A DNA stretch of 24,000 bases, taken from NCBI GenBank assembly GCA_017517965.1, contig JAFWXR010000037.1, positions 121,764-145,763 on the forward strand, given 5' to 3'. This stretch comes from Clostridia bacterium. GTDB taxonomy: Bacteria > Bacillota > Clostridia > Oscillospirales > Feifaniaceae. The notes beneath the pieces are model-generated. The model was not told where the DNA came from and did not search any database. It saw only the letters and a list, made by a program, of their open reading frames with translations. Positions 3,892 through 12,836 of this stretch are shown here, in pieces. A program made the translations under genes and the position numbers. Within the stretch, counting starts at the first letter, position 1; each line of letters starts with the position of its first letter.

Positions 3892-3921
3892 AAAAAAGAG
3901 ACCAATTTGGTCTCTTTTTTT
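3892..3921. terminator. Bidirectional intrinsic terminator (serves rny on minus and the 50-aa gene on plus)
   Basis: A tract 3892-3897, stem gagacc (3898-3903) / ggtctc (3909-3914), loop aattt, T tract 3915-3921. The rny stop codon (3920-3922) lies in the tract. Confidence 0.8.
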
Positions 3922-5476
3922 ATTTCGCAACGTCCTGTGCGCGCTTTTCTCTTATTACGTTTACCTTTATCTGACCGGGGTATTCAAGTTCACCCTCAAT
4001 CTTCTGGGCGATTTCCCTTGCGAGAATTACTAATCTGTCGTCACTTATCTTTTCGGGGTTGACCATAATACGAACTTCACGGCCTGCCTGAATTGCAAAT
4101 GACTTTTCAACGCCGTCAAAGCTCGTCGTAATTTCTTCAAGCTTTTCAAGACGCTTTATGTAGTTCTCAAGGTTTTCTCTTCTTGAACCGGGGCGTGCAG
4201 CGGAAACTGCATCTGCCGCCTGAACGAGAGCAGCAATCGTATACTTGGGAGCAACGTCACCGTGGTGGCTTTCGATAGAATTGACAACCACGTCATTTTC
4301 CTTATACTTCTTTGCAACGTCCGAACCGAGCTGAACGTGTGAACCTTCAATCTCATGGTCGAGCGCCTTGCCGAGATCGTGCAGGAGACCTGCCCTTCTT
4401 GCGAGATTTACGTCAAGACCGAGCTCGGATGCCATAACGCCTGCTATATGCGACACTTCAATAGAGTGGAGAAGAACGTTCTGACCGTAACTCGTCCTGT
4501 ATTTGAGTTTACCTAAAAGTTTGACAATTTCGGGGTGAAGATTTACGATGCCTGCTTCAAGAGCAGCCTTTTCACCCTCCTGCTTGATGATGTTGTTGAT
4601 GTCTTTTCTCGTCTTATCAACGATTTCTTCAATCTTTGCGGGATGAATACGACCGTCGTGAATAAGCCTTTCGAGTGACAGACGTGCAATTTCCCTGCGG
4701 ACAGGGTCAAAGCAGGAAACTGTGATAACTTCGGGAGTATCGTCGATTATAAGGTCAACGCCCGTAAGTGTTTCAAGTGCCTTTACGTTTCTGCCTTCAC
4801 GGCCGATTATACGGCCCTTCATCTCATCGCTGGGGATGGGGACTACCGATATGGTTGCTTCTGCAACGTATTCGGGTGCACAGCGCTGTATAGCCTGAGC
4901 AATGATTTCTCTTGCTTTTTCCGTGCTTTCGTCGTTGAATTTCTGCTCCGACTCCTTTATCTTGAGGGCACGCTCGTGATCGAGCTCCTGCTCAAGCTGG
5001 GAGAGAAGCATTTCCTTTGCCTGCTCCGTGGTGTAGCCCGAAATTCTTTCAAGCGCTTCCCACTGCTGCTTTTTGATGTTTGCAACATCCTCCATCTGTA
5101 CTTCTACTTCGTGGAGTTTTTCGGCAAGTTTTTCTTCCTTCTTTTCGATTGCATCGTACTTTTTGTCGATGCTCTCTTCCTTCTGATTCAGACGCCTTTC
5201 CTGGTTCTGAACTTCTTTTCTGCGCTCCTTGAGCTCGGCTTCCATTTCCGTTCTGCTGCGCAGGATTTCTTCCTTAGCTTCGAGTATTGACTCTTTTTTC
5301 TTGCTTTCAGCCGCCTTGATAGCGTCATTAACTATTCTTTTTGCCTCTGTTTCGGCAGAGCCGATCTTGCTTTCGGCAACCCTTTTTCTGTGGCTTATGC
5401 CGATGAAGAATGCAATTACAAAAACAAGTAAAAGAGCAACCACGCCGACAACTAACTGAACTGGTGTAAACGGCAT
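3920..5476 (-). CDS. rny: Ribonuclease Y
   Basis: N-terminal TM helix, long Glu/Lys-rich coiled coil, KH domain ([29 protein letters not shown]) and HD domain ([18 protein letters not shown] ... [10 protein letters not shown] ... ESHHGD). 518 aa, typical for rny. SD aaaggag upstream. Confidence 0.95.
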
Positions 5477-5606: not shown

Positions 5607-5635
5607 TTTACAACGCCGATGTTTTATGTTATAAT
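5607..5635 (+). promoter_or_regulatory. Candidate rnf operon promoter (TTTACA-17-TATAAT)
   Basis: TTTACA 5607-5612, 17-nt spacer, TATAAT 5630-5635, 36 nt upstream of the preferred rnfC start. Confidence 0.6.
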
Positions 5636-5670
5636 AACGGGTGGCAAATTACGAAAAGTTGAGGTATAAA

Positions 5671-6858
5671 ATGCTTTTAACATTCAGAGGCGGCGTTGAC
5701 GCCGGCAATAAAAGTGAATTTTTAAGCGGCTCGGTAATAAATACGATTGGTGCAGGGGAAACGCTTGTGTTGCCCGTTCCGTTTGGCTGTACACCCGTGG
5801 TTGAAGCGGGGGAGAGGGTGCTTGCAGGGCAGGTTGTTGCCGTGTCCGACAATGAGTACGGCGCATCTCTGTCGAGTGCGGTGTCAGGTACTGTTGTAAA
5901 GGCAACCGCATCACGTATTACCATTGAAAATGATGGTGAAAATACGCTATGTGACAGGCTTGAGGCAGATGACCCGATAACGCTTCTCCGTGACGCAGGG
6001 GTGACTGACCGTTTCGGTTTTTCTGCTGCGCAGAAGGTGGCAAACGCACCGGCACTCTACATCATCAGTTGCGTTGAGGACCAGCCGTATATGGTAAACG
6101 TGCAGGCTCTTTTGTCCTGCAGGGCTGACGAGTTTATCGGCGGTATAAAACTGCTCGAAAAAATAAGTGAAAATGCGCACATTGTGATTTGTACGACGCC
6201 CGACCTTTCTGAGTATGCTTCAAAGATTTCCGAGGCGCTTATGGAGGATGAAAGGGTACAGTTTCTCACGGTCAGCGGAAAGTATCCGCAGAGCTGGCCC
6301 CATATTTTAAAGCGTACCGTTACGACTGAGGAGAGTTGCGAAGTTATAGGGACGGAGGAGCTTTGTAATATTTACAGGGTGTTTAAGACGAGAATGCCCG
6401 TGACAGAAAAAATAGTTACCTTAAGCGGTGACTGTATGAGACGTGCAGAGGTCTTTTCGGTGCCCTACGGTACCTGTGTGTCAACCCTCATTAAAGCGGG
6501 GACGAGCTTTAAACGTGAACCGCTGAAGGTTGTCAAGGGCAGTGTTATGAACGGGGACGCCATATACAATATGCGTTCGCCCATAGATCGCACCGTATCA
6601 AGCGTGCTGACGCTTTTTGACCATCAGCACCGCTACGCAGGCGAATCGCATTGTATAAGCTGCGGAAGGTGTGACAACGTCTGTCCCGAAGGATTAAGCC
6701 CCGGAAGTATAATCAAGGCGTATAAGTTAAATGATACGGCGACACTGAGCAGGCTTAGCGTAAGCTCGTGCACACTGTGCGGTTGTTGCTCGTTTATATG
6801 TCCCGCAAGGGTAAATCTGCCGCTTATTTTAAGAAGTGCGCAGCTTATGGGAGAATAA
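5671..6858 (+). CDS. rnfC: RnfC-like subunit of an Rnf-type electron transport complex (divergent nucleotide/flavin-binding region)
   Basis: Preferred start is ATG 5671 (SD gaggt 5 nt upstream, product MLLTFRGGV...) rather than GTG 5641. RnfC-like N-terminus (FRGGV, SSAVSGTV), a YPQ motif, an SLBB-like middle region and two C-terminal 4Fe-4S motifs (CISCGRCDNVCP, CTLCGCCSFICP). First gene of the C-D-G-E-A-B order. Confidence 0.8.
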   Translation: MLLTFRGGVDAGNKSEFLSGSVINTIGAGETLVLPVPFGCTPVVEAGERVLAGQVVAVSDNEYGASLSSAVSGTVVKATASRITIENDGENTLCDRLEADDPITLLRDAGVTDRFGFSAAQKVANAPALYIISCVEDQPYMVNVQALLSCRADEFIGGIKLLEKISENAHIVICTTPDLSEYASKISEALMEDERVQFLTVSGKYPQSWPHILKRTVTTEESCEVIGTEELCNIYRVFKTRMPVTEKIVTLSGDCMRRAEVFSVPYGTCVSTLIKAGTSFKREPLKVVKGSVMNGDAIYNMRSPIDRTVSSVLTLFDHQHRYAGESHCISCGRCDNVCPEGLSPGSIIKAYKLNDTATLSRLSVSSCTLCGCCSFICPARVNLPLILRSAQLMGE

Positions 6859-6861
6859 TTT

Positions 6862-7875
6862 ATGAAAAAACATAAAAAACTTCTGCTTGTGTCGGCTTCG
6901 CCACATCTCAAGACGGCACAGGCTACATCGTGGATAATGTTCAACGTGCTTATTGCACTTTTACCTTCGTTTGTTGCATCGTGTTACTTTTTCGGACGAA
7001 GGGCGTTATTTATAACACTTATTTCGGTATCTTTTTCACTCGGCTTTGAGTATCTTTCAAGGCTGATGATGGGCAAACTTCCCACCGTAAGCGACCTCTC
7101 GTGTGTCGTGACGGGTGTTATCATTGCCTTTTGTCTGCCCGTAACGGTGCCCGTGTGGCTGGTTGCAGTAGCAAACTTTTTTGCTATTGTAATCGTCAAG
7201 CAGTGTTTTGGCGGAATAGGGCTCAACATCGTAAATCCGGCGGCGGCGGCGCTGTCGTTGCTGATGGTTTCCTTCACTGCCTCCATGACGAAATTTATTG
7301 CACCGCTTCTTGGCTTTGCGCAGATAATTCCCGAGGATGCAACGGTTGTGACAACGGCACTCTCACAACTCAAAGCAAGCGGGCAGACCCCTCAGAATTT
7401 ATTTAACATCTTTATGGGAAATACCGCAGGCAATATAGGTGAGACGTCGTCGTTTCTGCTTCTTATAGGCGGTGTATACCTGATTGTAAGACGTATTTCA
7501 AACTGGCGTATTCCCGTATCATTTATAGGTACGGTTGCGATTATTTCGCTTGTAAAGTCGTTTGACTTTACATTTATGCTGACGCAACTTTTCAGCGGTA
7601 CGCTTTTCCTTGCGGCATTCTTTATGGCGGTTGACCCCGTTACGTCGCCTCAGTCGCAGTCGGGCAAGGTGGTTTTCGGTGTTATATGCGGTGTTGCCAC
7701 CTGCTATATACGCTTCTTCGGCACTTATACGGAGGGTGCTGTGTTTGCGGTGCTCATTGCAAATCTCGTAACGCCTGTTATTGACAGCCTTTTACCCGTA
7801 AAATATAAGGGCGTCCGTACGGTTGAAAAGAAGAAACTGTCGGATTTTCTGCCTAAAAGGAGGAAAGCACAATGA
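6862..7875 (+). CDS. rnfD: RnfD subunit (polytopic membrane, NqrB/RnfD family)
   Basis: SASPH near the N-terminus, FGGIGLNIVNPA, DATVVTTALSQLK (position of the flavinylated Thr), AVDPVTSP and GAVFAVLIANLVTPVID. All match RnfD hallmarks. Confidence 0.9.
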   Translation: MKKHKKLLLVSASPHLKTAQATSWIMFNVLIALLPSFVASCYFFGRRALFITLISVSFSLGFEYLSRLMMGKLPTVSDLSCVVTGVIIAFCLPVTVPVWLVAVANFFAIVIVKQCFGGIGLNIVNPAAAALSLLMVSFTASMTKFIAPLLGFAQIIPEDATVVTTALSQLKASGQTPQNLFNIFMGNTAGNIGETSSFLLLIGGVYLIVRRISNWRIPVSFIGTVAIISLVKSFDFTFMLTQLFSGTLFLAAFFMAVDPVTSPQSQSGKVVFGVICGVATCYIRFFGTYTEGAVFAVLIANLVTPVIDSLLPVKYKGVRTVEKKKLSDFLPKRRKAQ

Positions 7876-8438
7876 AAGAATTTTTCCTCTCTACGCCCCT
7901 TCGCCGTGTGATAACGGCAGGTGTTGCAATTCTTCTGTCGTTCGGCATTATGGTCGGTGTGCTCACCCCTCTGCTTATATTCGGTGAGGACAGGGTTATA
8001 TCGGCTGCCGTAGCAAACGTTTTTCCCACGGCGACGGATTTTGAAGAAGAACACATAAGGTATGACAATGAAATAGAGTCTCTCTATGCCGTTATGACCG
8101 ATGAAACGGTGGCAGGTTACCTCTATAACGTAAATGCAAACGGCATTTCGGGACAGATAAATTTCTACGTCGGTCTTGATATGACGGGCAGGGTTATAGG
8201 TATATATTTCCCTTATCTTGATGAGCCCGTTTCCTACGGTGATATGACCGAGTTTAACAATTTTATAGCCTCTTTTACCGGCAGAACAGGCCCCTTTGCA
8301 GGGGTTGAGGGTGCGGCAACGCTCGCAGGGGACATATCTCTCGTAGGCGGTGCACATCACACCTGTTACGCGGTTATCGGCGGTGTCAATGCCGTGACGG
8401 AGGCTTTTAACGATGAATTTGCAAATGAGGCGGAATAA
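7872..8438 (+). CDS. rnfG: RnfG-like subunit (FMN_bind-type fold, membrane anchored)
   Basis: ATGA overlap with the rnfD stop, SD aggagg. N-terminal anchor helix, GISGQINFYVGLDMTGRVIG core, C-terminal ...LVGGAHHTCYAVIGGVNAVTEAF aligning to the SGATxTS region of RnfG/NqrC. Confidence 0.8.
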   Translation: MKEFFLSTPLRRVITAGVAILLSFGIMVGVLTPLLIFGEDRVISAAVANVFPTATDFEEEHIRYDNEIESLYAVMTDETVAGYLYNVNANGISGQINFYVGLDMTGRVIGIYFPYLDEPVSYGDMTEFNNFIASFTGRTGPFAGVEGAATLAGDISLVGGAHHTCYAVIGGVNAVTEAFNDEFANEAE

Positions 8439-9029
8439 ATGAAAATACGAAACTTCGCCTCGGGTGATATTTTTACCAGAAACCCGCTTTTGACGGGAGT
8501 TTGCTTTTTTACTCTCGTTATCACAATGACGATATCACTTCTCAACGGTCTGGCAACGGGCATCTTTGTGACCTGCGCCACCATGGTATCGCTCGTTGTG
8601 AGAAAGCTTATATCGCTTTACATTGACGAGAGGTGGCATCTTGCTCTTTACGCTCTGGCTGTCTGTGCCGTAATATCCGTCGGTGAACTGGCGGCAACGG
8701 CAATTTATCCCGACTTTGCTTCGAGAATGGCGCTCTATCTGCCTCTTGCGGCGATATACTGTCTTTCCGACAGGTCGTTTGACTTTACGGCAAAGCCTAT
8801 GCGTGCAACCGTTGAGACAACTCTTTTCAACTGTATCGGTTTTACGGCTGTCTGCACTGCAATAGGTACCGTGCGTGAGTTACTGGCTTTCGGCACGTTA
8901 CTCGGCATACCGGTGATGAAAAATTATCTTAAGATGCCTGCTATGGTGCTTCCAATAGGCGGTATGATAGTTTTCGCATTCGGTCTTGCACTTATTAACC
9001 ACATTAAAGGCAAAGGAGGCAAAATATGA
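8439..9029 (+). CDS. rnfE: RnfE subunit (NqrD/RnfE family membrane protein)
   Basis: RNPLLTGVCFF and LYLPLAAIYCL align to the NPxLxxxLGLCP and LPLIVTNC motifs. A GTVRELLAFGTLLG motif is present. Six hydrophobic helices. Correct position in the operon. Confidence 0.85.
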   Translation: MKIRNFASGDIFTRNPLLTGVCFFTLVITMTISLLNGLATGIFVTCATMVSLVVRKLISLYIDERWHLALYALAVCAVISVGELAATAIYPDFASRMALYLPLAAIYCLSDRSFDFTAKPMRATVETTLFNCIGFTAVCTAIGTVRELLAFGTLLGIPVMKNYLKMPAMVLPIGGMIVFAFGLALINHIKGKGGKI

Positions 9030-9583
9030 TAGAACTGCTTTCTCTTGTCATAACGGCAATGATTGCCGAAAATCTGCTCTGTGCAAGGGCTATGGGTATG
9101 GAAACGGCACTTTTTGACCGTCACGACTACCTGCATTTCGGCGTATTCACGGTTGTTTCGTCTACGGTGCTCTCACTTTTTGCGTGGCTTTTTGACTTCT
9201 TTGTGTTTGCCCGTTTCGACTTACAGTTTCTTCGTGTTTTTGCCTATATACCGCTTCTTTTTACGGTTGTATGGGCACTGCAGTATCTGCCGAAAATAGG
9301 CGTTCATCTTGAAAAATACAAAAATGCGCTTATTTTCAACAGCGCTCTGCTCGGTGTTGCGGTAATTACCGCAGTTAAGACCTATCCTGTCTATTACGCC
9401 GTGCTTTACGGCTTTTTTGCAGGACTCGGATACATCGTTGCACTGCTTTTGTTTAACAAACTGTGCAGCAGGATAAGTAATGCCGACCTGCCCCGTGCAT
9501 TTGTGGGTATGCCCTCAAAACTTCTTATTCTTGCCCTGATGTCTCTTGCTTCAATGGCATTTACGGGAGGTGTTACGGTATGA
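9026..9583 (+). CDS. rnfA: RnfA-like subunit (NqrE/RnfA family membrane protein, divergent)
   Basis: ATGA overlap with the rnfE stop, SD aaggagg. C-terminal ...ADLPRAFVGMPSKLLILALMSLASMAFTG matches the RnfA tail (VPxxFxGxxIxLIxAGLMSLAFMGF). Correct position in the operon. Confidence 0.8.
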   Translation: MIELLSLVITAMIAENLLCARAMGMETALFDRHDYLHFGVFTVVSSTVLSLFAWLFDFFVFARFDLQFLRVFAYIPLLFTVVWALQYLPKIGVHLEKYKNALIFNSALLGVAVITAVKTYPVYYAVLYGFFAGLGYIVALLLFNKLCSRISNADLPRAFVGMPSKLLILALMSLASMAFTGGVTV

Positions 9584-10197
9584 TTATTGCACTGAAAATA
9601 TTACTTGCGATTGTAATCGTCGCAGGAAGCGGTGCCCTTTGCATATTCTTTCTCAAGGATAAGATTCCTGCCGAGAAGAAGGGGCAGTCGGTGCCGACTC
9701 AAAGGCTTACGGCTGTCGTTGCCTGCTGCGGTAACGAGCAGAGTACCGACGTTTCTTTCGACTATGCGGGCGAGCTTACCTGTGAATCGGCGTCGCACCT
9801 TTTCGGTGGCGACAAGAGTTGTCCGTATGCCTGCATCGGCTACGGTGACTGTGAAAAGATCTGTCCCGAAAATGCAATTACCATGAAAAAAGGCCTGCCG
9901 GTCATAGATTCACTCAAATGCACCTTTTGTAAGAAGTGTATTGAAATATGTCCCAAGGGACTGATAAGACCGCAGAGCTCGTCGTTCTCCTACTACGTTG
10001 CGTGCAGTAACAAGCGTTTTTCCAAGACCGAAAAGTATTGCGATACGGGCTGTAACGGCTGCGGTAAGTGCATAGAGGTATGCGAAAAGAAGGCAATTTC
10101 CTACAACGGCAGACGAGTTATAATAGACGATAATCTCTGCGATTTATGCGGAAAATGCATAGAAGTCTGCGACAGAAACGTAATAAAACACGTGTAG
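9580..10197 (+). CDS. rnfB: RnfB-like ferredoxin subunit (short form: N-terminal anchor plus poly-ferredoxin region)
   Basis: ATGA overlap with the rnfA stop, SD gggaggtg. N-terminal TM helix, then CPYACIGYGDCEKICP, CTFCKKCIEICP, CNGCGKCIEVC and CDLCGKCIEVC cluster motifs. Last gene of the operon, followed by a terminator. Confidence 0.8.
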   Translation: MIIALKILLAIVIVAGSGALCIFFLKDKIPAEKKGQSVPTQRLTAVVACCGNEQSTDVSFDYAGELTCESASHLFGGDKSCPYACIGYGDCEKICPENAITMKKGLPVIDSLKCTFCKKCIEICPKGLIRPQSSSFSYYVACSNKRFSKTEKYCDTGCNGCGKCIEVCEKKAISYNGRRVIIDDNLCDLCGKCIEVCDRNVIKHV

Positions 10198-10226
10198 AAA
10201 AAGGCATCCAATGGATGCCTTTTTTT
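10198..10226. terminator. Bidirectional intrinsic terminator after rnfB
   Basis: A tract 10198-10202, stem ggcatcc (10203-10209) / ggatgcc (10213-10219), T tract 10220-10226. Confidence 0.8.
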
Positions 10227-10258
10227 AATTCGGAATTCGTAATTCGTAATTCGGAATT
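10227..10258 (-). repeat. Heptad array, 4.4 units (aattcgg aattcgt aattcgt aattcgg aatt on +). Left arm of cassette 2.
   Basis: Begins at the nucleotide immediately after the terminator T tract. Exact 7-nt register. Confidence 0.9.
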
Positions 10259-10265
10259 GAGGTTG

Positions 10266-10505
10266 TTAAAATGTTTCGTTATCTTTTTCAAAAATCTTCA
10301 TTGTAAGTCGGGTGGCTGTGTCAATGCCTTCTTCGTAATATTCCTCCATCATAATCTCTGATTGTTGCAGTTTCAGCAGGCTGATTGAATGATACAATTT
10401 TTTCTGTTCTTCACTTAAACTTTCAAGTAGATTATTTTGAAGTTCTCTGATTTTTTTGCTGTATTCTGAATATTGGGATTGTCTGTGAGAATTTTCAAAA
10501 AACAT
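10266..10505 (-). CDS. Small hypothetical helical protein (79 aa), divergent partner of the RHH gene
   Basis: ATG 10505 with SD gaggt 5 nt upstream on the minus strand. Product MFFENSHRQSQYSEYSKKIRELQNNLLESLSEEQKKLYHSISLLKLQQSEIMMEEYYEEGIDTATRLTMKIFEKDNETF has heptad-like hydrophobic spacing. No family confidently recognised. Confidence 0.6.
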   Translation of the reverse strand: MFFENSHRQSQYSEYSKKIRELQNNLLESLSEEQKKLYHSISLLKLQQSEIMMEEYYEEGIDTATRLTMKIFEKDNETF

Positions 10506-10518
10506 AGTATACCTCGAT

Positions 10519-10552
10519 ATATGTTATTAATATGTTATAAATCATAACATAT
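10519..10552. promoter_or_regulatory. Operator-like cluster of the 9-mer ATATGTTAT (two direct copies 11 bp apart plus one inverted copy)
   Basis: ATATGTTAT at 10519-10527 and 10530-10538, and ATAACATAT at 10544-10552. Copies 2 and 3 form a perfect 9-bp inverted repeat with a 5-bp spacer. A fourth copy at 10591-10599 overlaps the SD/ATG of the RHH gene. Confidence 0.55.
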
Positions 10553-10597
10553 TAAAGAAACTTAAGTCAACATATACTCTATGTGAGGTGATATGTT

Positions 10598-10786
10598 ATG
10601 AATGACAAACTCATTATAAACAAGAGGAAACTGAAAGGTGATGACGGATACAAAACCTTTTCAGTGAGGATAAAAGACGAAACGGTAGAAAACTTGAATA
10701 AATTGGCAAAAGAAACAAACCGTTCAAGAAATGAATTGATAAATATTTTGTTGGAATATGCTATAGCAAACAGCAAAATCGTGTAA
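10598..10786 (+). CDS. Ribbon-helix-helix (CopG/Arc/MetJ-like) DNA-binding protein, 62 aa
   Basis: SD gaggtg 7 nt upstream. KTFSVRIKDETVENLNKLAKETNRSRNELINILLEYAI follows the beta-strand, helix, helix pattern of RHH repressors. Confidence 0.75.
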   Translation: MNDKLIINKRKLKGDDGYKTFSVRIKDETVENLNKLAKETNRSRNELINILLEYAIANSKIV

Positions 10787-10822
10787 TTTCAATGATTTTT
10801 GATGAAATCAAAAATCTACCAT

Positions 10823-10854
10823 AATTACGCATTCCGCATTCCGAATTCCGCATT
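10823..10854 (+). repeat. Heptad array, 4.4 units (attacgc attccgc attccga attccgc att). Right arm of cassette 2.
   Basis: Exact 7-nt register. It abuts the terminator A tract at 10855. It is preceded by the hairpin gatttttga/tcaaaaatc (10794-10816) and the spacer TACCAT, the same spacer as at 12875-12880. Confidence 0.9.
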
Positions 10855-10886
10855 AAAAAAGAAGGACTTAAAGTCCTTCTTTTATT
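10855..10886. terminator. Bidirectional intrinsic terminator whose stem-loop contains the stop codon of the minus-strand DUF21-CBS gene
   Basis: A tract 10855-10860, stem gaaggact (10861-10868) / agtccttc (10872-10879), T-rich 10880-10886. The stop codon complement tta lies at 10868-10870. Confidence 0.75.
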
Positions 10887-12175
10887 GTTACCGTTATTTC
10901 TTCTGCCATTGTTTCGCTTGCTTTTGTTACCGCTATTGACAGACCCTCATACTCGATTTTCTGACACTGGGCAGGGATGTTTCCAAGCATCTCCGTAAGC
11001 CAGCCGTTTACGGTTAATACGTCAAGGTCTTCGGGCATTTCAAGTGAAAAATAATCGAAGAAAGCATTTATTTCGGTTGAACAAAGCACTTTATACGTGT
11101 TCTCACCGACTTTCTTGATATCTTCAATCGCTTCGTCACTCTCGTCCCATATCTCACCGACAAGTTCTTCTATTATATCCTCTATCGTTACGATACCAGC
11201 CGTGCCGCCGTATTCATTTACGACAATCACAATGTGAGTGTGCGTTTTCTGCATATTGCTCAGCAGTACGTCAAGATGCATACCCTCTGCCACGAACGTG
11301 GGCTCGAGAAGTATATTTTTGAGGGCAAAACCGTCTTTGGCATAGTTTAAAAGATAGTCCCTCGTGTGAAGTATGCCGACGATATTGTCCGTCGTCTCGG
11401 AATACACGGGAAGGCGTGAATACCTTTCCGTTTCTATGACGGAAAGAATCTCCTCCTGTGAGGCATCTGCCGACACGAAAACAACGTTTTCACGGGGCAT
11501 CATTACGTTTTCCGCAGTGAGCGCATCAAGCTTAAAGACGTTCTTTATGTAACTGATTTCATCGCTGTCAAACGTACCCTCGTCACCGCCTGCATCGAGC
11601 ATAAGCTCAATATCCTCCTGCGAAACCGCCTCTTCCTTTTCATTCGGGTCGATACCGAAGAGACGCAGTACGCCGTTTGTCGAAACCGTAAGAAGCCATA
11701 CGATAGGTCTGAGTGCAACCGCAAGTCCCGATATTGAACCGCAGACTGCTTCTGCAAACTTTTCCTTATGCTTCATTGCCACACGCTTGGGTACAAGTTC
11801 ACCGAGTACAAGTGTGAAGAATGAAAGCACGAGCGTTATCACAATGACCGATGCCGTGTTTACCGTACCGTATTGTGAAGCAGGCATATTGAAGGCCTTG
11901 ATGATAAAGCCTGTCAGCCTTTCGGCAAAATTGTCTGCCGCAAAAGCTGAGCCGAGAAAGCCTGCAAGCGTTATGCCTATCTGGATGGTTGAGAGAAAAC
12001 GTGTCGGCTCTTCAATCATCTTGAGCATTTTGACGGCTTTTTTGTCCCCGTCCTCCGCACGTGCTCTGAGTTTGATTTCGTTGAGTGATATTACGGCAAT
12101 CTCCGTTGCCGCAAAAAATGCATTGAGTAAAATTAGAATTAGCTGCAACAAAAGTTGTCGGGCTATGTCTGACAT
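10868..12175 (-). CDS. Hemolysin-family / CNNM-type protein (DUF21 + CBS pair + CorC_HlyC), third paralog in the window
   Basis: 435 aa. N-terminal DUF21 helices (LLNAFFAATEIAVISL), MMPRENVVFV, a CBS pair, GIVTIEDIIEELVGEIWDE and a C-terminal CorC_HlyC-like domain. Confidence 0.9.
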   Translation of the reverse strand: MSDIARQLLLQLILILLNAFFAATEIAVISLNEIKLRARAEDGDKKAVKMLKMIEEPTRFLSTIQIGITLAGFLGSAFAADNFAERLTGFIIKAFNMPASQYGTVNTASVIVITLVLSFFTLVLGELVPKRVAMKHKEKFAEAVCGSISGLAVALRPIVWLLTVSTNGVLRLFGIDPNEKEEAVSQEDIELMLDAGGDEGTFDSDEISYIKNVFKLDALTAENVMMPRENVVFVSADASQEEILSVIETERYSRLPVYSETTDNIVGILHTRDYLLNYAKDGFALKNILLEPTFVAEGMHLDVLLSNMQKTHTHIVIVVNEYGGTAGIVTIEDIIEELVGEIWDESDEAIEDIKKVGENTYKVLCSTEINAFFDYFSLEMPEDLDVLTVNGWLTEMLGNIPAQCQKIEYEGLSIAVTKASETMAEEITVTIKEGL

Positions 12176-12251
12176 GATGTCCTCCTATAAATATTGAAAT
12201 GTATATATATTACAGTAAAACAATGTGTTTGTCAAATTTATTACATAATTG

Positions 12252-12280
12252 TTGATTTTTATTTACAGTTATTTTAAAAT
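12252..12280 (+). promoter_or_regulatory. Candidate promoter (TTGATT-17-TAAAAT) for the ECF S-component-like gene
   Basis: TTGATT 12252-12257, 17-nt spacer, TAAAAT 12275-12280, 29 nt upstream of ATG 12309. Confidence 0.45.
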
Positions 12281-12308
12281 TGACTGTATGAACAGGGGGA
12301 GATTTAAA

Positions 12309-12836
12309 ATGTCAAACGTGAAAAAGACGGTCATTTCGGCACTGTGTGTCGCTCTGTGTGTCGTGCTGCCGATGGCTTTTCATGCTATACCCGGGGCGGC
12401 AAATGTATGCTCGCCCATGCATATTCCCGTGCTTTTGTGCGGTCTTATCTGCGGTCCGCTGTACGGTCTGCTTTGCGGTCTCGCAGGACCTGCTTTGTCA
12501 ACGCTTCTGACGGGTATGCCACCTGCGGCGTATCTGCCGAGTATGCTTGCCGAGCTTGCCGTTTACGGTCTTGTAACGGGCGTTATGATGAGGCTTGTAC
12601 ACACCGGAAAAAAGTATGCCGACCTTTACATAAGTTTAGTTACCGCAATGCTTATGGGCAGGGTGGTTGCAGGTATTCTCAGGGCATTTGTTTTTGCCCC
12701 CGGAAGTTACTCGATGAGTGTCTGGATAACGAGTTATTTTATTACCTCATGGCCGGGGATAGTTATTCATCTCATCCTCGTGCCGACGGTATATTTTGCA
12801 GTTAAAAAAAGTAATGTTTTAACGGTTAATTCGTGA
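12309..12836 (+). CDS. ECF-transporter S-component-like membrane protein (substrate unknown)
   Basis: Preferred start is Met21 of the track ORF (ATG 12309, SD ggggga 8 nt upstream). SPMHIPVLLCGLICGPLYGLLCGLAGPALSTLLTGMPP ... MLAELAVYGLVTG matches the PMHIPVLLxG...GMP signature I associate with ECF_trnsprt-type S components. No EcfA/EcfT genes are adjacent. Confidence 0.7.
   Translation: MSNVKKTVISALCVALCVVLPMAFHAIPGAANVCSPMHIPVLLCGLICGPLYGLLCGLAGPALSTLLTGMPPAAYLPSMLAELAVYGLVTGVMMRLVHTGKKYADLYISLVTAMLMGRVVAGILRAFVFAPGSYSMSVWITSYFITSWPGIVIHLILVPTVYFAVKKSNVLTVNS

Follow-up and report, generated by a model that had tools for sequence, protein, structure and literature searches.

Structures of the six-subunit Rnf complex are available for Clostridium tetanomorphum (7ZC6), Acetobacterium woodii (9ERI) and Azotobacter vinelandii (8AHX). 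In the canonical path, electrons of ferredoxin enter through the FdIII and FdII domains of RnfB and pass to its FdI domain, a mobile shuttle that delivers them to the intramembrane Fe-S centre held between RnfA and RnfE (A/E centre); from there they follow the flavin mononucleotide (FMN) of RnfG, the FMN of RnfD, a riboflavin, the RnfC clusters and the RnfC FMN to reach NAD+ (Vitt et al. 2022, PMC9588780). The ligands of the A/E centre are Cys25 and Cys113 of RnfA together with Cys26 and Cys109 of RnfE, the FMN molecules are carried on Thr164 of RnfG and Thr153 of RnfD, and the riboflavin is flanked by RnfD Asn124 and Asp248, at 11.7 Å from RnfC cluster 2 (PMC9588780). A 2025 review describes the cofactors of the Rnf/Nqr membrane subunits as "strictly conserved" (PMC12174285), and the pumping mechanisms now proposed require all of them. 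A different arrangement is the two-subunit "NQR/RNF-like" system, in which an RnfD-NqrF fusion (with the NAD-binding domain PF00175), encoded beside an FMN-bind protein or ApbE, works with a flavinylated RnfG-like protein and RnfA, E, B and C are absent (PMC8238504); unidirectional electron flow has been proposed for it (PMC8238504; PMC10979944). Here we describe an rnf operon (positions 5671-10197) in a stretch of 24,000 nucleotides from a Clostridia bacterium of the family Feifaniaceae (contig JAFWXR010000037.1), referred to from here on as the window and providing the coordinates used below. Like the solved complexes it has six subunits in the clostridial order, the ferredoxin domain of RnfC, the FdII and FdIII clusters of RnfB, the N-terminal arm of RnfD and the riboflavin/Na+ residues. 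It differs from them in being without RnfB FdI, the RnfA Cys ligands, the RnfG acceptor Thr and the RnfC FMN/NADH loop, in an RnfD FMN pocket that is predicted to be remodelled, and in having five of its six subunits under the NCBIfam cutoffs.

The genes of the operon and its candidate expression signals are the following:
5607..5635, + strand: sigma-70-type promoter-like site, TTTACA, 17 nt spacer, TG and TATAAT, about 35 nt upstream of rnfC
5671-6858, + strand: rnfC, 395 amino acids (aa), with RnfC_N and 4Fe-4S domain matches (Pfam); best NCBIfam model rnfC
6862-7875, + strand: rnfD, 337 aa, with an NQR2_RnfD_RnfE match (Pfam); best NCBIfam model rnfD
7872-8438, + strand: rnfG, 188 aa, with a sub-threshold FMN_bind match (Pfam); best NCBIfam model rnfG
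8439-9029, + strand: rnfE, 196 aa, with an Rnf-Nqr match (Pfam); best NCBIfam model rnfE
9026-9583, + strand: rnfA, 185 aa, with an Rnf-Nqr match (Pfam); best NCBIfam model rnfA
9580-10197, + strand: rnfB, 205 aa, with polyferredoxin domain matches (Pfam); best NCBIfam model rnfB
10198-10226, bidirectional (no strand): intrinsic-terminator hairpin between rnfB and the DUF6809 gene, which converge on it, made up of A5, GGCATCC-AAT-GGATGCC and T7 (hairpin and T7 at 10203-10226)

The order C-D-G-E-A-B is that of clostridial rnf operons, and all six products have Pfam, NCBIfam and PDB matches. The genes overlap by ATGA at D/G, E/A and A/B, with gaps of 3 nt at C/D and 0 nt at G/E, and a Shine-Dalgarno sequence of the GAGG/GGAGG type precedes each of the six starts, bearing out the original prediction, made from the sequence alone, of six coupled open reading frames (ORFs) with good ribosome-binding sites. 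The start of RnfC at the ATG at 5671, also part of that prediction, is the one used by the relatives, three of the four examined beginning with MLL(T/S)F, and a longer ORF from a GTG at 5641 was rejected on the same grounds. The promoter-like site lies within the 194-nt divergent intergenic region between rny (- strand) and rnfC (+ strand), matches at 11 of 12 hexamer positions and has an extended -10 TG. The terminator hairpin was missed by a consensus terminator scan and was read directly from the sequence; it has a 7-bp GC-rich stem and folds at -18 kcal/mol (z = -6.2). Coupled ORFs, Shine-Dalgarno sites, promoter-like site and terminator together make the rnf unit, therefore, a self-contained operon.

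Residues were checked in phmmer/hmmsearch alignments to 7ZC6, 9ERI, 8AHX and the Vibrio cholerae NQR (7XK3), and also with MAFFT. The canonical comparison set comprised 15-17 operons per subunit, from Oscillospiraceae, Krumholzibacteriota and one Clostridia metagenome-assembled genome (MAG), and five members were compared of the clade formed by the window operon and its relatives. Only RnfD reached its NCBIfam cutoff (276 bits vs 207). The other five subunits failed, namely RnfC (163 bits vs 246, TIGR01945), RnfG (27 vs 102), RnfE (41 vs 213, TIGR01948), RnfA (68 vs 229, TIGR01943) and RnfB (120 vs 252). When retention was measured as the share of columns at least 90% conserved in canonical proteins that all clade members keep, the values were 69% for RnfD, 43% for RnfB, 40% for RnfC, 39% for RnfG, 28% for RnfA and 21% for RnfE. 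The substitutions are common to the five clade members, down to 54-69% identity, so that the motif changes described below can be read as an effect of neither chance nor misalignment.

RnfB is composed of a transmembrane (TM) anchor, a linker of about 20 residues and the polyferredoxin part with FdII and FdIII. No PF04060 match was found for an FdI domain (CGGCGxxGC...C, in general form CxxCxxxxxCx17C), the stretch from the TM helix to FdII is shorter by about 55-60 aa, and residues 35-43 of the window protein correspond to residues 95-99 of canonical RnfB. The 20 Cys that are left match the ligands of FdII, FdIII and the bridging cluster and are enough for five [4Fe-4S] sites. Variable domain content is not new in this subunit, since RnfB of Thermotoga maritima keeps FdI only (cited in PMC9588780), but that is the opposite truncation, the window protein having kept everything except FdI.

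In RnfA, the ligand Cys25 is replaced by Glu26, invariant in the clade, and Cys113 by Ser106, a position with S, N or T across the clade. In RnfE, Cys108 lines up with canonical Cys109. Gapless alignments to 7ZC6 and 9ERI, the two RnfE structures whose alignments span the site, and also MAFFT, place Cys22 three residues before canonical Cys26, while a weaker alignment pairs it Cys-to-Cys with "LGVCS" of V. cholerae NqrD. As this region is an unwound segment (PMC9588780), the equivalence of Cys22 to the canonical ligand is ambiguous. With both RnfA Cys replaced, the four-Cys ligand set of the intramembrane centre is incomplete, and at least its RnfA half is predicted to be lost. TM1 of RnfA carries an invariant Cys19 and, as new invariant acidic residues, Glu15 and Glu26. 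RnfE has family-invariant Cys at positions 76, 132 and 139, where the canonical proteins have invariant Ala, Gly or Leu, and RnfD has them at positions 81 and 281, where the canonical residue is Ala or a near-invariant Val (16/17). An enrichment in Cys of the membrane subunits was looked for, and their total Cys content was not raised.

RnfG has an N-terminal TM helix and a diverged FMN_bind-type domain (PF04205, 18 bits, under the cutoff). The canonical acceptor region ITGATITSKAV reads LVGGAHHTCYAV, that is, tGATxTS has become GGAHHTC and the acceptor Thr164 (C. tetanomorphum numbering) corresponds to His162. In the most distant relative (L005) the same position is Glu, and therefore no particular replacement seems to have been selected. 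The motif ETPGLG has changed to EPVSYG, and Cys165, invariant in the clade, stands where canonical proteins have Ser. The covalent FMN site of this subunit is thus predicted to be lost.

RnfC keeps the N-terminal barrel-sandwich domain and two invariant CxxCxxCxxxCP motifs (Cys328/331/334/338 and Cys367/370/373/377). The NuoF-type loop, canonically GIVGMGGATFPT, reads GVTDRFG--FSA in the alignments to solved Rnf complexes and with MAFFT. All five clade members show the change of GMGGATFPT to DRFG--FSA, with a deletion of two residues, and that of AECEPY to CVEDQPY, and a 10-residue segment of the NuoF-like domain ("vPpGGlPsdvG") is deleted. Judged by these changes, the FMN/NAD(H) site is lost. 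The middle region also matches NqrA models (NF003761, 75 bits; PF24836), and NqrA of the Na+-NQR provides a precedent for an RnfC-type subunit that stays in its complex without flavin/NADH function. However, NqrA has lost the Fe-S domain as well, whereas the window RnfC keeps both [4Fe-4S] motifs. The operon differs from NQR also in having no NqrF-like gene among its Pfam, NCBIfam and structure matches, the sixth gene coding for an RnfB-type polyferredoxin, while NQR has retained its D/E Fe-S centre and its two covalent FMNs.

RnfD is the best conserved subunit, 47-51% identical to typical clostridial RnfD. Its N-terminal arm, which docks RnfC and RnfD, is conserved, the riboflavin/Na+ residues are retained (window Asn125, Glu194 and Asp258 for canonical Asn124, Glu185 and Asp248), and the flavinylation residue Asp159 and the acceptor Thr165 are invariant in the clade. 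The covalent-FMN motif of RnfD has been given as D-x-x-[ST]-G-A-T (PMC12052999). The window reads DATVVTT-A-L vs the canonical DxV(T/S)xAT-P-L, with V, V and T at -3, -2 and -1 of the acceptor and the +1 Pro lost. In a comparison with the 111 nearest RnfDs from outside the family, the positions changed in the clade were kept nearly everywhere else, both next to the acceptor (-1 Ala in 108 and +1 Pro in 106) and among residues that contact the RnfD FMN (Vitt et al. 2022, PMC9588780), with Arg130 kept in 109, Gly237 in 108 and Ser284 in 102. The replacements of these three are Leu131, Thr and Val, respectively. The FMN pocket of RnfD is thus predicted to be remodelled although its acceptor Thr165 has been kept.

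These alignments uphold most of what had been proposed for the single subunits. The claims that RnfC had lost its glycine motif with both 4Fe-4S motifs intact, that the RnfG acceptor Thr had become His, that both RnfA Cys were substituted and that the N-terminal Fe-S domain of RnfB was missing were all confirmed, with the reservation that the RnfG His is not conserved in the clade. Two others stood in part. RnfE keeps the second Cys of its pair in register, but the register of the first differs between alignments, and RnfD, described as canonical, keeps Thr165 but not the FMN pocket contacts, the -1 Ala or the +1 Pro. The losses persist in proper alignments and are not motifs shifted by a few residues, the first RnfE Cys being a possible exception. 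RnfB without FdI, or no RnfB at all, does occur elsewhere in uncharacterised operons, in each case with Cys-less RnfA, but never in a characterised active Rnf. The original observation is real and, if anything, understated.

Pairwise dN/dS (ratio of non-synonymous to synonymous substitution rates, Nei-Gojobori) between clade members was 0.03-0.19 for the six genes at dS values from 0.6 to more than 2, and RnfB was the most constrained (0.03-0.04). These low values in all six genes indicate that the operon is under strong purifying selection and therefore not decaying, as had been proposed from its gene order, its overlaps and its Shine-Dalgarno sites. The same architecture and substitutions were found in independent NCBI MAG, ENA, JGI and Logan assemblies. 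A search anchored on RnfD among 5.8 billion proteins gave nine clusters at 99-69% identity, followed by a sharp fall to 51% or less, and among the GTDB species representatives the clade was found in three "Feifaniaceae bacterium" MAGs, Feifaniaceae being a family of Clostridia. Profile scans of metagenome contigs with the RnfB and RnfA clade alignments gave no matches. The cofactor-poor variant is, by these searches, rare and restricted to a narrow clade of uncultured Feifaniaceae MAGs. The closest RnfD from outside the family (P0202, 51% identity) was considered as a paralogue and rejected, because it comes from a different MAG and belongs to a fully canonical operon. The pattern [AG]NFFAIVI, which matches canonical RnfDs too, was found at one locus per Feifaniaceae MAG, a weak hint that these MAGs have no second rnf cluster. 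In one MAG contig 96% identical to the window (L009:4450-5076), the first ~30 codons of rnfG are in a frame unlike that of all other clade members, probably a frameshift or an assembly error in that MAG.

Loss of the RnfA ligands extends well beyond this clade, and metagenomes commonly contain Cys-less RnfA proteins. A HMMER search with the window RnfA-like protein provided 138 full-length cluster representatives among the best 150 matches, a list biased toward the query, and of these 75 were without both ligand Cys, 47 were without one and 16 had both. In these representatives (P0007-P0154) the first site is often Asp, Glu or Ser and the second mostly Ser or Thr. One of the Cys-less groups is named in NCBI just "Rnf-Nqr domain containing protein". 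The following seven loci with Cys-less RnfA were sampled:
L035, 3581-7585: apbE-rnfC-D-G-E-A, without rnfB, apbE directly upstream
L036, 2797-7627: rnfC-D-G-E-A, without rnfB
L037, 3613-7570: rnfC-D-G-E-A, without rnfB, RnfG acceptor Thr lost
L040, 3712-7540: rnfC-D-E-A, without rnfB, D and G fused
L039, 4377-7119: rnfD-G-E-A, without rnfB and rnfC, RnfG acceptor Thr and RnfD Arg130 lost
L041, 3398-8347: six genes, RnfB without FdI, RnfC NADH site and FMN_bind-type RnfG kept
L008, 1381-1713: short contig (1.7 kb), RnfB without FdI, RnfG SGAT kept

All seven either have no rnfB or have an RnfB without FdI. Loss of the A/E ligands thus goes closely together with loss of input through RnfB/FdI, as would be expected if the branch from RnfB to the A/E centre can be dispensed with as a whole. 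The RnfE ligand pair is degraded in L035, L036, L037 and L040, canonical RnfC NADH/FMN motifs are kept in every sampled locus that includes rnfC, and the SGAT acceptor of RnfG is kept in L035, L036, L040 and L008. RnfD Arg130 is absent wherever the RnfG Thr is absent (the clade, L037 and L039), and is kept in L035 and L036, with RnfG SGAT, and in L041, whose RnfG matches FMN_bind; the D-G fusion of L040 is the exception. The four operons L035, L036, L037 and L040 look like a one-way "half-Rnf" that would carry electrons from NADH to an extracytosolic flavin, while L039 seems to be a case of an Rnf membrane core, poor in cofactors, that persists by itself. These operons (L035-L041, L008) have in common with the window the Cys-less RnfA, the degraded A/E centre and the missing FdI/RnfB input, and L041 also the six-gene layout and the short RnfB. 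Most of them, however, keep the RnfC NADH/FMN motifs and the RnfG SGAT, both of which the window clade has lost, and their RnfA are at most 35% identical to that of the window. The closest outside RnfA (P0008, a singleton) is the one of L008, and L041 and L008 may be evolutionary intermediates toward the window variant. We found no description of RnfB-less or Cys-less Rnf variants in the literature that could be searched.

The sites predicted to be lost form a coherent set, consisting of the whole inbound branch, made up of FdI, the FMN of RnfG and at least the share of RnfA in the A/E centre, and in addition the FMN/NAD(H) site of RnfC. What is retained comprises seven cytoplasmic [4Fe-4S] sites (five in RnfB and two in RnfC), the riboflavin/Na+ residues of RnfD and its Thr165; the Fe-S parts, the arm that docks RnfC and RnfD and the riboflavin-site residues are under strong constraint. 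With the FdI step and at least half of the A/E centre gone, and with them the FMN of RnfG and the FMN/NAD site of RnfC, the complex is almost certainly no longer a Na+/H+-pumping ferredoxin:NAD+ oxidoreductase working through the semicircular path. The proposal of a remodelled Rnf-like complex, rewired or repurposed, is supported by the purifying selection, by the coherent site losses and by the single subunit above its cutoff. The only contiguous route left goes from the Fe-S clusters of RnfB and RnfC to the flavin site(s) of RnfD, which points to a one-legged arrangement, and we consider it an about even chance that the variant is a lineage-specific Rnf derivative of most likely this kind, an Fe-S-to-RnfD module. 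In such a module, the membrane-anchored polyferredoxin of RnfB (FdII+III), docked on RnfC, would swap electrons with ferredoxin-type partners, and both RnfC clusters would then relay the electrons to the flavin site(s) of RnfD. RnfD would be the sole transmembrane leg with surviving residues, the flow would probably be unidirectional, and the role left to RnfA, RnfE and RnfG would be mainly that of a scaffold.

Among published arrangements, the one that comes nearest is the two-subunit "NQR/RNF-like" system (Meheust et al. 2021, PMC8238504; Huang et al. 2024, PMC10979944), a partial Rnf/Nqr with a single transmembrane electron leg, through an RnfD-type subunit. The window differs from it in keeping six subunits, in the loss of the NAD site and in an RnfG that would not be flavinylatable; its RnfD is unfused (337 aa) and has no PF00175 match, and no ApbE was found in the window. 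Several points weigh against the one-legged module. In canonical Rnf, 25 Å separate the closest carriers of RnfB and RnfC (PMC9588780), so that direct transfer from B to C would need a changed geometry. The altered FMN pocket of RnfD may leave the surviving leg flavin-poor, and some metal site may persist in the membrane, because two invariant RnfE Cys and an invariant RnfA Glu at a ligand position are present. Neither the window nor the 10 kb to each side of rnfA in two relatives contained an acceptor, ApbE or partner gene.

Unlikely, in our view, but the best surviving of the alternatives, is that RnfD, G, E and A, the membrane core, were taken over for a task other than redox chemistry, for instance the transport of ions, solutes or flavin, with RnfB and RnfC as a redox-sensing or regulatory cap. 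L039, with rnfD-G-E-A only, no cytoplasmic redox subunit and neither the RnfG Thr nor Arg130, shows that a cofactor-poor core can apparently persist alone, and a transport role would be consistent with an RnfD that keeps its Na+/riboflavin residues while losing the FMN contacts, with the new acidic residues of RnfA TM1 (Glu15 and Glu26) and with the channel scenario for RnfD, which Vitt et al. relate to ammonia transporters (PMC9588780). A riboflavin-type S component of an energy-coupling factor (ECF) transporter is encoded near the operon (12249-12836) and also in L039; in L005, however, the RibU-like gene does not lie next to the operon, and its presence here may be a coincidence. No transport substrate is indicated, and the strong constraint on RnfB, the most constrained of the subunits, with its 20 cluster Cys and the eight of RnfC all kept, is seemingly more than a regulator needs.

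Distinctly less probable is that the complex is still a ferredoxin:NAD(P)+ (or similar) oxidoreductase in which other ligands stand in for the lost ones and the cofactors are bound non-covalently; RnfE Cys22/Cys108 and RnfA Glu26/Ser106 might hold a metal centre, for instance, RnfG might bind its flavin without a covalent link, and RnfC might use another nucleotide site. The pairing of RnfE Cys22 with the NqrD ligand Cys in one alignment, the invariance of RnfA Glu26 in the clade, the family-invariant Cys at canonical invariant Ala/Gly/Leu positions in RnfE and RnfD and the selection acting on all subunits fit this possibility. Yet unconventional replacements would be required at four separate sites, in an RnfC whose phosphate-binding Gly loop is shortened and whose 10-residue segment is deleted and in an RnfG that has lost the ETPGLG motif too, and the FdI shuttle domain, without which the A/E centre would be out of reach, is missing altogether. 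In the related Cys-less operons, moreover, the residues at the A/E site vary widely, which argues against a conserved alternative ligand set. That the operon is a decaying remnant or an artefact of assembly or alignment, as five subunits far under curated cutoffs and the discordant rnfG 5' end of L009 might suggest, is effectively refuted by the intact ORFs with Shine-Dalgarno sites, promoter and terminator, by dN/dS of 0.03-0.19 at dS up to more than 2, by the same architecture in independent NCBI, ENA, JGI and Logan assemblies and by the agreement of three alignment methods on the substitutions.

A broader view, tentative and somewhat doubtful, would place the operon at the extreme of an unrecognised "half-Rnf" radiation in which the legs of the loop are separable modules. 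The complex of the clade would then be flavin-poor, Fe-S-only on its cytoplasmic side and without an intramembrane Fe-S centre, and would serve for the export of ferredoxin electrons via RnfD alone or as a redox-gated ion/flavin conduit of RnfD, A and E.

The neighbourhood of the operon is of a housekeeping kind, including rny, CNNM/CorC, an ECF S component, DAGK, nth, a proA-like gene, zapA, a U32 peptidase, maf, mreCD and a PBP2-type penicillin-binding protein, and an Rfam search of the window gave no RNA element. The nearest features are:
3920-5476, - strand: rny (RNase Y), upstream flank, divergent from rnfC
10266-10505, - strand: small DUF6809 gene, within a low-GC stretch and convergent with rnfB
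10598-10786, + strand: ribbon-helix-helix-like ORF of 62 aa, within the low-GC stretch
12249-12836, + strand: ECF-transporter S component of riboflavin (RibU-like) type, 2 kb downstream of the operon

The low-GC stretch (10200-10860) has 35% GC vs ~46% elsewhere, and its content varies, L001 having DUF6809 only and L005 a 2173-aa ORF without Pfam match downstream of rnfB. Three CNNM/CBS/CorC-type genes for putative divalent-cation efflux (49-480, 495-1769 and 10868-12175) flank the operon within 12 kb. The RibU-like S component was found also in the relatives L001 and L002, is not adjacent to the operon in L005, and in L039 a riboflavin-type one lies at 8600-9163, near rnfD-G-E-A.

A six-subunit Rnf that strong selection maintains although FdI, the NAD(H) site, the flavin of RnfG and the ligands of RnfA are missing indicates that the scaffold can do something else. 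The variant sits within a larger undescribed diversity of partial Rnf complexes, in which the Cys-less, RnfB-less operons show the Rnf loop taken apart by nature into separable modules. The family Feifaniaceae includes at least one cultured genus (Feifania). For these gut Clostridia, the scoring of "Rnf present" in metabolic reconstructions would wrongly credit them with energy conservation by ferredoxin:NAD+ oxidoreduction.

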